Source: a virus (taxonomy: Duplodnaviria > Heunggongvirae > Uroviricota > Caudoviricetes). From it: a stretch of DNA of 64,000 nt. The DNA is taken from the IMG/VR virus record IMGVR_UViG_2713896799_000023; one strand, written 5' to 3'. Below, in pieces: positions 18,001-21,000 of the stretch (positions are counted from its first letter, which is position 1; every line of letters starts with the position of its first letter). Position numbers: made by a program.

Positions 18001-21000
18001 GTTACCGAGTTGCGCCTCAGGACGCTGTTCCTCTGAATAGGCCATACAGACTCCATAAAAAAACCCGGCACAATGGCCGGGCATCAGGAAATGGTATTAA
18101 TGGAATATCGTGAATTACTGGGCGTAATTCTGTTTCAGTCCACGGATAAACTGAGATGCAGATGAAGCACTTTCATCTCTGGCCTGTTCCCCCCTGGCCT
18201 TTTGAATACGGAGAAAATTCGCATACCCGTTCTCCAGCAATTTCTGATTCTGAGGTTCCAGCATTTCAGGCTGACGGGCCGCTACATTTCTGGCAAATGA
18301 CAGCTTATCAGGATCATCTCCCGCCCAGTTGATAACCTGTTGCTGAAGTTTTTGTTGCTGAATTTTCTGTTGATGCGGTTGTGAACCAGTCGCAGCATAA
18401 TATTCATCCACCGCAGCCTGAGCATTACCGCCATTCTTGATCGCGTCCGCCGCTACGTTGCTGGCCCCCTTCTGAAGCTCTTTCAGAGAAAGTCCCTGCT
18501 GCTTCGGCATAAAATAACCATAATTTTTCGATATCTCTGCAAATTTGCTGCGATCCCTGACCTGAGCGATAGCCTTATCAACGGGTATCGCCAGCACGGT
18601 TTGATCATCAGGGTGCGCACTGCCGTATTCTGTTACAGGTTTATGCGCGGTGGAGCCATCGCTGTATGTGAGATCAAGGCCAATAAGTACGTACCCTTCC
18701 TGCTGCGCTGGTACGATACTGCCAATCCTGGCCTCTTTTATCGTTTTTTCCCCGGTTGAATCAGGCATGCCAATACGCTGTTGTAGTTCCGGGGCAAACA
18801 CGCCGGAAAGCACATCGAGATTTTCCGGGGTATTCAGCGAATCGATCGCCATGTCCGGCTTATCACCAAAGATTTTTTGCAGGTTGATCACGGCCTGACC
18901 CGCTTTCGCTGCATAGCCTTCGTTTGACATAAGAATTAATGGATGTCCCTTTGGCAGCTGCCCGAACAGACGCGTTGCAGCCTCCTGATCGCCAGCCTCA
19001 ATTGCTTTTCCAAGCGCTTCCATTAGTGGCTGGCTATGGGCAATCATATCGTTATACTCAAGCCGTCGCTGGTTGTATTTCTGCAACTGGAGTCGCTGCT
19101 GCTCCATACCCAGTGACGCATTCCGGTAATTCTGGTTAGCGTTAAACTCCCTTTCCTTCAGTGCATAATTACGGTCGTCAACTTTGGCTCTGTAATCAAA
19201 GTTCCGCTGATCAACGTTTTTATTATGTTCAAACTGAGACTGCGCAAACTCAAAATCGCGCTCGTTATTTTTCTGTTGCCGGGCAAGCTGTGCTTCACGC
19301 AGACCAAGCTCCTTACGACGGGTCATTGCCTGGTCAACGGTGCTGAATCCGGCAAGTAACCCCTGTGCAAATCCGCTCATTCACCACTCCTTAAAACAAA
19401 GAACCAGCAATGCCGCCAATTACTGCTCCAGCAACAGCACCAACAGGACCACCAACGGATGCGCCAATAGCCGCCCCCGTACCAATGCCCGTACCGATAT
19501 TCTGCTTGTTCTGCGCTTTCTGTTGCGCCGCCATCTGTTTGTTCGCAGCCTCAATTTCTTCACGTCGTCTGTCTGCGTCACTTATTCCCTGTAATGCCTC
19601 ACGCCGCGACTGATTTGCAATATCCAGTAAACCGTATCCCATATTGCCCCCTTACGCTGCCACCAGTTGGCCGCCAACACTCAGTTTCTGTCTTGCCGGT
19701 GCAGAAGCCCCCGTCAGAATATTCATCTGGCGATCCTGTTCGGCTTCACGGATACCATTTTTCGCGCCAGCAATTGCCAGGGCATTACGTAACCCCAGCG
19801 TATTACTGTCGGGATTATCCGGGCGGTTTACCCCGTATCTCGCCATCTGGTTATCCTGCGCCATCTGCGCTGTACGGAGACTGGAAGTGGCAAGGCCTCC
19901 CACCCGTGCAAGCTGTGCATTCATCAGACTGTTGTTCTCCCCAAGGTCAGCCAGCCTTGCTACACGGGGTAAATATCTGGTGCGCCAGTCGTCGTATTGC
20001 TGGCGGGTCAGCGCTGCGGATGTCTGCCAGTCCCCCTGAGGGCGGGCTGCTCCGGTATAACCGTATCTTGCAAGTGTTTCGTATTTACCGTACTCCATAA
20101 TCACAGTCTCCAGTTCTGAGCCTGATGCTGAATGGCATTAGCGCCGGTGCCAGGTGTTTTAGCACCGCCACTTCCTCCGCTACCGCCAGCCTTATGCATC
20201 GCATATGCACCTGCCGCACCCAGACCAGCGCCAACAAGAGAGGCTCGCCCCTGCTGTTTCGTAAACGCCGCCTGTGCATCCGATTTAGCTTTTGCCAGAC
20301 TGCTGTCTGCCAGAGAGTTAAAACTCTGTAACGCATCCGCCTTCTGACCAGAACCGAGAGCGGCAACATCCTGTAGCCCGGCAACATACTTATCTGCCTG
20401 CGATACCTGCCCCCGTGTGGTTGTGTCAATCTGCCCGGTTACCTGATCACTCTGGTTCGCATTCATTACCGCGTTAAAGCGACCACTGGACGGGTCAACA
20501 CCGGACTGAGCAAGATTACCCGCCAGCTCCCTTCGCGCTTCACCAAACTGTTTCTGATAACCAAGATTTGTTGTGCCAGCGATATTGTCGTACTGCTGCT
20601 CACTGTTAAGGTCATCGACCTTTTCCATGAAGTTATCTTCAGCCGGGCGGAGGATATTTTTGTAATCCTGCCACCCTTTCCAGGCCACTTCTTCCTGTGC
20701 TATTTGCGCTGCTGTTGGTTTTACTTTGGTATCACCACCGCCTTTACTTCCACCCATAATGGCCCCCTGGATAACAAAAAACCCTGCCGGAGCAGGGTCA
20801 GAATGTGAATTACAATGTTGGTTTAAACACAATGATGAAAACTGTAGCAGTCAGACCGCTATCCTGAACACCATGAAGCCATCCTCATCATCCGGCATTC
20901 GCTCAAAGCCCAGTCGTTTTCCCAGCCGGATAAATCCCCGCCTTGCCGTATGGAACTCAGCCCAGCGTCCGCCAGCCAGATGGGTTAATGTCTTCACCTC

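Follow-up and report, generated by a model that had tools for sequence, protein, structure and literature searches.

In phage P22, the needle gene is followed by a cassette encoding gp14 (151 residues), gp7 (229 residues), gp20 (471 residues) and gp16 (609 residues). The gp52-gp51-gp50 set of phage N4 (PMC13434306) and the gp14-gp15-gp16 set of T7 (PMC8954989) each combine a small membrane-active protein, a mid-size tunnel protein and a very large ejected protein, and both stand at the end of the late operon. Here we analyze a 64,000-nucleotide stretch of Caudoviricetes DNA from IMG/VR record IMGVR_UViG_2713896799_000023 (hereafter the window), in which four adjacent genes encoding proteins of 218, 148, 83 and 421 residues lie upstream of the gene for a giant protein of 2793-2806 residues. 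We conclude that the four genes probably encode the small and middle parts of a DNA-ejection (internal virion, or “pilot”) protein set, with the giant protein as its large part.

Positions 18000-21300, which carry the cluster, match Escherichia phage P13374 with 100% identity and many other Stx phages with at least 99%. P13374 is the Shiga toxin 2a (Stx2a) phage of the strain behind the 2011 O104:H4 outbreak. The minus strand carries all late genes in the window, and the four genes correspond to open reading frames (ORFs) 74-77 of P13374, to L0130-L0133 of phage 933W and, as mapped by size and order, to ORF76-79 of phage Sp5. RefSeq names P13374 ORF74-77 “hypothetical”, “hypothetical”, “bacteriocin” and “hypothetical”, and places ORF78, the “LPD5 domain-containing” giant, directly downstream. 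All four proteins fall into PHROGs families of unknown function; the 218-, 148- and 421-residue proteins have no Pfam match, and searches of PDB sequences with the four proteins, both as single sequences and as profiles, returned no match.

The sequence-only reading of this DNA had proposed that the 83-residue protein ends in a long glycine zipper, and closer inspection confirms it: residues 49-83 (35 residues) contain no charged residue, asparagine or glutamine, and comprise six overlapping GxxxGxxxG motifs. A GASVGGPxGAxxGA…SLF motif is kept in the Aeromonas and Vibrio orthologues. This C-terminus resembles that of P22 gp7. The gp7 protein ends in …STPWGAAIGGGIGLLGSLF and the 83-residue family in …GGP(V/W)GA(V)xGAxxGxxxGSLF, with …PWGAxIGxGxGxLxSLF as the C-terminal pattern common to the 83-residue protein and gp7. 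Aligned with hhalign, the 83-residue family matches the gp7 alignment with a probability of 88.6% (E = 2.7e-6), both C-termini being aligned end to end, and matches a diverse gp7 profile (P22, Sf6, ST64T, APSE-1 P32, Shewanella ZP9, sortsyn, Skarpretter and two Vibrio phages) with a probability of 91% (E = 1e-6). When the last 50 gp7 columns were shuffled, none of 200 shuffles reached the observed score (maximum 19.6, versus 40.0 observed), so the match is order-specific and not merely compositional. The similarity is visible even in plain BLASTP: over 30 residues, the GGPWGAAIGGGLGLLGSLF end of the accepted gp7 homologue APSE-1 P32 and the 77-residue Vibrio orthologue of the 83-residue protein are 67% identical.

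With glycine-zipper peptides (PF13441) and class IIc bacteriocins (PF10439), the 83-residue protein shares repeated GxxxG motifs within some 35 uncharged residues. It differs from them in falling below both Pfam gathering cut-offs (Gly-zipper_YMGG, 25.7 bits against 28.9; Bacteriocin_IIc, 19.7 bits against 27.1, E = 8.8e-4) and in having neither a lipoprotein signal nor a double-glycine leader; its genomic context and its specific similarity point instead to the phage gp7 family. The protein also lacks a signal peptide, and its first 48 residues form a hydrophilic helix.

The 218-residue protein can be tied to gp7 along most of its length. Its family comprises 381 clusters at 50% identity, all of about 185-250 residues, and aligns with the diverse gp7 profile over 163 collinear columns (hhalign probability 67%, E = 5e-5), pairing residues 14-191 of the window’s protein with gp7 residues 34-212. 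None of 75 shuffles reached the observed score of 38.4 (maximum 16.8). The N-terminus of the family, MGGSKGGGD…, falls at the position of the mature gp7 N-terminus (…E|KGGKGGADK…), which in gp7 is exposed by cleavage of a 20-residue leader. We did not find this OpdA-cleaved N-terminal leader in the 218-residue family, which begins directly at the mature gp7 N-terminus. APSE-1 P32 likewise starts leaderless, with MGGSSG, and so the leader is not universal in the gp7 family. Furthermore, 78 of the 101 members of the 218-residue family match phrog_8003, annotated as “virion structural protein”. On these alignments, we assign the 218-residue protein with moderate confidence as a distant relative within the P22 gp7 ejection protein family.

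We modeled the 218-residue protein with AlphaFold2 (AF2) from a 101-sequence alignment, obtaining a mean predicted local distance difference test score (pLDDT) of 80, with residues 10-135 above 90. The model contains three long helices (residues 16-50, 53-84 and 92-135) and a C-terminal helix (residues 148-190) with a glycine/alanine-rich uncharged segment. A Foldseek comparison with the PDB returned only generic helical bundles, and a comparison with BFVD returned a family homologue and a 416-residue Peptidase_S74 protein of Klebsiella phage SopranoGao. Weak BFVD matches (E = 0.04-0.7) to T7-like “internal virion proteins” of about 200 residues were set aside and not used as evidence.

The 148- and 83-residue proteins are in turn related to the 218-residue protein. 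The 148-residue family aligns with the 218-residue family with a probability of 95.2% (E = 2.8e-8; residues 26-125 of the window’s 148-residue protein to residues 20-125 of its 218-residue protein), and none of 75 shuffles reached the observed score (53.6, versus a maximum of 18.3). The 83-residue family aligns with the C-terminal part of the 218-residue family with a probability of 89.1% (E = 2.3e-6; residues 5-61 to residues 131-187), again with no shuffle out of 75 reaching the score; residues 1-48 of the 83-residue protein are homologous to residues 131-175 of the 218-residue protein. It is through the 218-residue family (at a probability of 95%) that the 148-residue protein is tied to gp7, and it also matches the gp7-like 416-residue SopranoGao protein (E = 2.9e-6). 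Since the two short proteins, 231 residues in total, match the N- and C-terminal parts of the 218-residue protein, they represent a second gp7-type gene split into two ORFs. These profile alignments show the 148-residue protein to correspond to the predicted N-terminal helical half of this second copy, and the 83-residue protein to its C-terminal helix and the glycine zipper ending in …SLF. The split is ancient, as each part has its own start codon in all three lineages (E. coli, Aeromonas and Vibrio).

The four genes form the core of a conserved six-gene module, in the order 133, 218, 148, 83 and 421 residues followed by the giant of 2793-2806 residues. Outside Stx phages, tblastn searches with the 218- and 421-residue proteins matched nothing but about 100 Vibrio phages and one Aeromonas phage, phiARM81mr; a tblastn search with a distant family member added no further cultured phage groups, and two homologue searches returned only near-identical E. 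coli or Aeromonas sequences. In phiARM81mr, the genes encode in order proteins of 119, 212, 124, 85, 466 and 3190 residues, and in Vibrio phage 1.205.O proteins of 131, 201, 117, 77, 442 and 3130 residues. In both phages a tail-tip gene immediately precedes the module, and all six proteins are homologous, pair by pair, to those of the window. Scanning IMG/VR with the 218-family alignment yielded 80 loci. All 34 divergent contigs keep the order of proteins of about 119, 210, 125 and 80 residues, then 466-540 residues and a giant, immediately following a tail-tip gene. As these 34 contigs and the phages of three host genera all keep the order and sizes, we consider the four genes to be real. The 83-residue gene shares this fixed place among structural-module genes in E. 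coli, Aeromonas and Vibrio phages, and lacks its own promoter.

The module opens with the gene for the 133-residue protein. A homologue lies immediately 5′ of the 218-type gene in phiARM81mr (41% identity, E = 1e-27) and in Vibrio phage 1.205.O (E = 9e-6), homologues occur in about 34 viral contigs as well, and the gene is the first of the module in every lineage examined. With hhalign, we detected no similarity of its family to P22 gp14, gp7 or gp20 or to the 218-residue family, nor to a 141-residue GNAT-type acyltransferase that occupies the same position in Lastavirus. Its Sp5 counterpart, ORF75, is non-essential (PMC5155283).

The 421-residue protein stands between the small and large ejection-protein genes, and its size and position fit those of a mid-size tunnel protein (431-982 residues in known systems). 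Its AF2 model, built from a shallow two-clade alignment, is of moderate confidence (pLDDT 62.8) and runs from a helix of about 115 residues at the N-terminus through a small alpha/beta domain to a helical bundle at the C-terminus. A G(F/L)xxG(L/F)LAG motif precedes the long helix, and a short N-terminal G(F/L)LAG motif is all that the protein has in common with gp20 of P22 and Sf6. An hmmsearch of PDB sequences found no match, and hhalign comparisons of the 421-residue family with gp14, gp7 and the 218-residue family found no similarity. We therefore assign this protein as a putative gp20-type middle protein by position only, together with its size, its essentiality and its exclusion from the resolved tail (both described below), and not by homology.

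The giant protein carries the Pfam domains LPD38, LPD5, LPD1 and MuF_C, which mark it as a “polyvalent protein”; hhalign detected no similarity between its N- and C-terminal regions and P22 gp16. We also noted that residues 409-426 of the giant form a glycine zipper, GAALGAAMGAPFGAVAGY, with 70% identity over 17 residues to the zipper of the 83-residue protein, and that this zipper is kept at residues 373-391 of the Vibrio homologue. The giant further contains a hydrophobic segment at residues 2445-2467, near its LPD38 domain, and reads PLPYGY where the Lastavirus giant has its “PLxRFG” motif.

How does this module compare with described ejection systems? Its portal is of the P22 type (PF16510, E = 6e-127), and as in P22 a small accessory gene is followed by genes for proteins of about 220 residues, about 420-470 residues and then a large protein. 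The 218-residue protein is collinear with gp7 (PHROG 598, “DNA transfer / injection protein”) and shares with mature gp7 an N-terminal GG(S/K)KGG. The sequence-only reading had proposed a comparison with podovirus ejection proteins; made here, it matches both the 83- and the 218-residue proteins to gp7 and finds the gene order parallel to gp14-gp7-gp20-gp16. The module differs from the P22 cassette in several respects. It has two gp7-type copies, the second split into 148 and 83 residues, whereas P22 has one; the intact 218-residue copy lacks the OpdA-cleaved 20-residue leader, and has lost the terminal SLF zipper in favor of a glycine/serine-rich tail. Moreover, similarity to gp20 and gp14 could not be detected for the 421- and 133-residue proteins, a polyvalent protein of 2800 residues replaces the 609-residue gp16 as large component, and no gp7-type gene is essential on its own in Sp5.

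The N4 and T7 sets resemble the module in placing small, mid-size and very large components in succession where the late operon ends. One study (PMC8954989) tabulates gp14/gp15/gp16-like triads that parallel the module in sizes and synteny. N4 is alike in that its large component is a giant multidomain protein of about 3000 residues, threaded through the tail (PMC13434306). The differences are that the window’s proteins show no sequence or fold similarity to T7 gp14/gp15 or N4 gp51 (Foldseek against the PDB, E of at least 0.13), that its giant is an LPD/MuF polyvalent protein and not an RNA polymerase, and that its module has five proteins where N4 and T7 have three.

A modified form of the module is found in Lastavirus. 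The late operon of SopranoGao ends (genes 10-6) with an acyltransferase-like protein of 141 residues, followed by proteins of 416, 95 and 383 residues and a 4369-residue “PLxRFG” giant, which begins with an SLT transglycosylase domain and carries LPD39. The layout is the same, with the gp7-like 416-residue protein two genes upstream of the giant, matching its position in the module. This protein is homologous to the 218- and 148-residue families, matches the Aeromonas 218-type protein in BLASTP (E = 4e-9) and belongs to phrog_8003, “virion structural protein”; the 383-residue protein belongs to phrog_9667, likewise “virion structural protein”. Lastavirus differs in having a single, unsplit gp7-like protein fused to a C-terminal Peptidase_S74 chaperone domain, in the GNAT-type acyltransferase that forms its first gene, and in the SLT, methylase and helicase domains of its giant. 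Comparing the Lastavirus proteins of 141, 95 and 383 residues with the 133-, 83- and 421-residue families gave no signal, leaving them as positional analogues only. In the fusion gene itself (SopranoGao 17717-18967), the predicted autocleavage site lies right after a glycine-rich hydrophobic segment; the fusion suggests that gp7-type proteins in some phages may fold as trimers or need assisted folding.

Two published data sets on close relatives bear on the function of the cluster. In a series of in-frame deletions in Sp5 (Mondal et al, 2016; PMC5155283), loss of ORF79 (421 residues) or ORF80 (the giant) abolished plaques and lysogens, and both are thus essential; the mutant particles contained DNase-resistant DNA at the wild-type level and their heads looked normal. 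Deletion of ORF76 (218 residues) still allowed plaques, with lysogens obtained only from concentrated lysates, and deletions of ORF77 (148 residues) and ORF78 (83 residues) were not among the defective mutants (PMC5155283). The phi24B preprint (10.64898/2026.04.10.717836) describes by cryo-electron microscopy (cryo-EM) a tail composed of the portal gp72, two adaptor rings, the nozzle gp57, the trimeric needle gp56 and the lateral fibres gp61. The four orthologues of the window’s genes, vb_24B_44-47, are absent from this tail. About 36,000 spontaneously “ejected” phi24B particles have also been seen. The giant gp47 is abundant in phi24B virions and invisible in the maps, and the authors propose that it is an ejection protein (10.64898/2026.04.10.717836). 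By mass spectrometry, they also detected a “homolog of a bacteriocin” in purified virions, at a level close to that of low-abundance structural proteins, and put it aside as a contaminant on account of its annotation (10.64898/2026.04.10.717836). As the 83-residue gene is the only one named “bacteriocin” in the annotated records that we examined, we infer that this protein is the 83-residue orthologue.

Together, these data support the proposal of the sequence-only reading that the cluster is an ejection or internal-protein set with a membrane-inserting zipper peptide, in that the 218-, 148- and 83-residue proteins have order-specific similarity to the gp7 family or to one another. The best-supported form of this model is an elaboration on the P22 kind, with an intact and a split gp7-type copy, one essential middle protein and a giant polyvalent large component. 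In such a model, the ejection proteins would be packaged in the head during assembly, and once the central needle leaves the nozzle they would pass out through the portal-tail channel before the DNA does. The gp7-like proteins would put their glycine-rich amphipathic ends into the outer membrane, taking the role of T7 gp14 or N4 gp52; the 421-residue protein would carry the conduit across the periplasm, as P22 gp20 does; and the giant would reach the inner membrane and cytoplasm. The intact and split gp7-type copies may be partly redundant, which would account for the tolerance of Sp5 to single deletions of the 218-, 148- and 83-residue genes and for the lethality of deleting the 421-residue or giant gene.

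A bolder version of this model, which we find doubtful, is that the outer-membrane ejection pore is a heteromer of the intact gp7-type protein and the two-chain split gp7, with the 83-residue zipper peptide as a detachable membrane anchor that can be delivered separately, and the whole an adaptation for threading a polyvalent effector of about 300 kDa across the envelope. Were this so, the 83-residue protein would be a stoichiometric virion component and not a contaminant, and the paralogues would not be simply redundant.

Several points weigh against an ejection role for the four genes. The main discordant datum is that Sp5 particles lacking ORF79 or ORF80 were not labelled by an anti-tail-fibre antibody, from which Mondal et al. 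concluded that these genes act in “tail formation” (PMC5155283); a pure ejection-protein defect does not predict such a loss. The missing labelling might mean that internal proteins are needed for stable attachment of the tail or its fibres, or might be a weak negative result. The ejection proteins of P22 and T7 are all essential, yet three of the four genes here are individually dispensable or only partly needed. The link between the 218-residue protein and gp7 is moderate (probability 67%) and joins compositionally biased sequences, and P22 gp7 has no solved structure in the PDB. For the 421-residue protein, we found no sequence or fold similarity to P22 gp20, T7 gp15 or N4 gp51: hhalign comparisons with gp20 (full length, N-terminal part and diverse set) gave no signal (E = 0.06-0.13), and the best Foldseek match of its model in the PDB has E = 0.13, a weak test of fold at a pLDDT of 62.8. 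Finally, the mass spectrometry evidence from virions concerns the giant and the presumed 83-residue orthologue, and equating the “bacteriocin homolog” with the 83-residue protein rests on the RefSeq name. A 2025 paper on phages of enterohaemorrhagic E. coli reported mass spectrometry coverage for only three proteins.

An alternative reading is that the cluster encodes tail-assembly or structural proteins, with the 421-residue protein and the giant needed to build or stabilize the short tail, as Mondal et al. (2016) concluded for ORF79 and ORF80; the 421-residue protein would then not be ejected. The unlabelled, DNA-filled heads of the ORF79 and ORF80 mutants and the location of the genes downstream of the tail genes in the late operon agree with this proposal. 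We nevertheless think it quite unlikely: the phi24B maps resolve the whole tail with no density assigned to the cluster, the giant is abundant yet invisible in them, which points to an internal location, and three of the genes encode relatives of the gp7 family. The immunogold result is moreover negative, and even the wild-type tails of this phage were seen only “occasionally”.

Similarly improbable in our view is that some of the proteins, most plausibly those of 148 or 421 residues, are non-virion chaperones that fold the gp7-like proteins and the 300-kDa giant, or load them into the procapsid, and are then left behind. The P22 cassette is thought to include such a factor, gp14; the fusion of the Lastavirus gp7-like protein to the intramolecular chaperone Peptidase_S74 suggests a need for help in folding or oligomerization; and the phi24B authors name gp47 alone as an ejection protein (10.64898/2026.04.10.717836). 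The 148-residue protein, however, is paralogous to the body of a virion protein of the gp7 type and not to gp14, whose position is already occupied by the conserved 133-residue gene, and the 421-residue protein has the size, position and N-terminal glycine-rich motif expected of a middle ejection protein. That the 83-residue protein is a bacteriocin-like, toxin, lysis or superinfection-exclusion membrane peptide, accessory and unrelated to the virion, as its RefSeq name, its weak Pfam matches, its dismissal as a contaminant in phi24B and its dispensability in Sp5 could be taken to mean, we reject as highly improbable, given that both Pfam matches are sub-threshold, leader and signal peptide are missing, its N-terminal helix is homologous to the 218-residue protein and its C-terminus matches gp7 in an order-specific manner, its promoterless gene has a fixed place in the module in phages of three host genera, and the protein is, by the identification above, present in purified virions.

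The phage, its genes and their knockout phenotypes are already known, and an ejection role for the giant has already been proposed. We did not find four of the present points in the available literature: that the 218-, 148- and 83-residue proteins are related to gp7, that the split second copy is conserved, that six genes form a module with the distribution described, and that the “bacteriocin” is by implication a real part of the virion. The annotations and family libraries consulted here, like the Sp5 and phi24B literature, list the four genes as “hypothetical”, “bacteriocin” or of unknown function, and the gp7 link gives three of them a testable function. The first Stx-phage virion proteome may have misclassified one protein: treated there as a contaminant, it is probably carried inside the particle. 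The module represents a six-gene “ejection module” common to podophages of E. coli, Aeromonas and Vibrio, and modified in those of Klebsiella, that package giant polyvalent proteins. Short-tailed Stx phages spread Shiga toxin genes, including those of the 2011 O104:H4 strain, and the finding bears on how DNA is delivered through a BamA-bearing outer membrane. For the phage ejection-protein field, it is an incremental extension and not a new principle.

Table 1. Features of the proposed ejection module in the window.
Feature	Position	Strand	Remarks
133-residue gene	20851..21252	-	First of the conserved six-gene module; P22 gp14 position; Sp5 ORF75
Terminator-like hairpin and T-run	20772..20799 (hairpin 20799-20780)	-	Between the 133- and 218-residue genes; terminator scan and sequence reading
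218-residue gene	20101..20757	-	ORF74 / Sp5 ORF76 / 933W L0130; gp7-like ejection-protein candidate
148-residue gene	19652..20098	-	ORF75 / Sp5 ORF77; paralogue of the 218-residue protein’s N-terminal helical domain
83-residue gene	19391..19642	-	ORF76 “bacteriocin” / Sp5 ORF78; paralogue of the 218-residue protein’s C-terminal part
Glycine zipper of 83-residue protein	19394-19498	-	Counterpart of P22 gp7 C-terminus
421-residue gene	18115..19380	-	ORF77 / Sp5 ORF79 / 933W L0133; gp20 position
Terminator-like hairpin and T7 run	18063..18082	-	Between the 421-residue and giant genes; scan and sequence
Giant polyvalent protein gene (2793-2806 residues)	9664..18045	-	Last module gene; gp16 / N4 gp50 position

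The sequence-only reading had placed the cluster at 18115-20832 and described its genes as tightly packed and partly overlapping. Its four co-directional minus-strand genes upstream of the giant stand, but the cluster ends at 20757. The start at 20832 is a spurious mechanical TTG extension that spans a terminator-like hairpin (Table 1); the true start, ATG 20757, has a GGGGG ribosome-binding site and yields 218 residues, in agreement with RefSeq and Sp5. The second gene truly starts at ATG 20098, giving 148 residues and not 150. With these starts the packing is indeed tight, with intergenic gaps of 2, 9 and 10 nucleotides, but no overlap remains. Each of the four genes is preceded by its own purine-rich Shine-Dalgarno sequence. 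Among Stx-phage variants, their ratios of non-synonymous to synonymous polymorphism (pN/pS) are 0.10-0.55, below 1, in a rough ungapped estimate.

Two terminator-like hairpins bracket the four genes, one 5′ of the 218-residue start and the other between the 421-residue stop and the giant gene. In the Aeromonas phage, the gap at the site of the first hairpin is only 8 nucleotides, leaving no room for one. In a Q-antiterminated late operon, such hairpins may limit read-through from accessory genes in lysogens. The second hairpin lies within the first 13 codons (18046-18084) of the giant as annotated in RefSeq (2806 residues), and the Sp5 start (MAYSEEQ, ATG 18045, 2793 residues) looks more plausible.

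The location given in the sequence-only reading, between the tail and the giant protein, is roughly right: the conserved 133-residue gene and inserted accessory genes separate the cluster from the tail-needle gene at 23423-24691. The accessory block (21309-23408), which is missing from the Aeromonas and Vibrio relatives, comprises a mokW/hok-like 46-residue ORF, the gene for an outer-membrane protein of the Lom/Ail kind (21682-22416) and genes for proteins of 205 and 92 residues. The phi24B preprint proposes that the 205- and 92-residue products may sit on the needle tip as BamA-binding proteins (10.64898/2026.04.10.717836).

Elsewhere in the window, a 216-residue protein (29380-30030) matches Pfam SU10_adaptor (E = 3e-32) and neighbors a further feature at 30030-30701; the phi24B cryo-EM structure has two adaptor rings. 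The Sp5 orthologue of this protein, ORF66, is not among the essential genes in the Mondal screen, in which ORF65 (187 residues) is called the scaffold. The “non-essential” calls of this deletion screen may call for caution. Mapping the RefSeq record onto the window shows that positions 1-9141 are a bacterial chromosome flank, with the prophage beginning at 9142, and places stx2A and stx2B at about 44862-46102 on the minus strand; the GC content of the flank falls to 0.40 at 6-8 kb. Finally, the tail-gene region of phiARM81mr contains a retron-type reverse transcriptase with small flanking ORFs (5876-7953), an arrangement suggestive of a diversity-generating retroelement directed at a tail protein.

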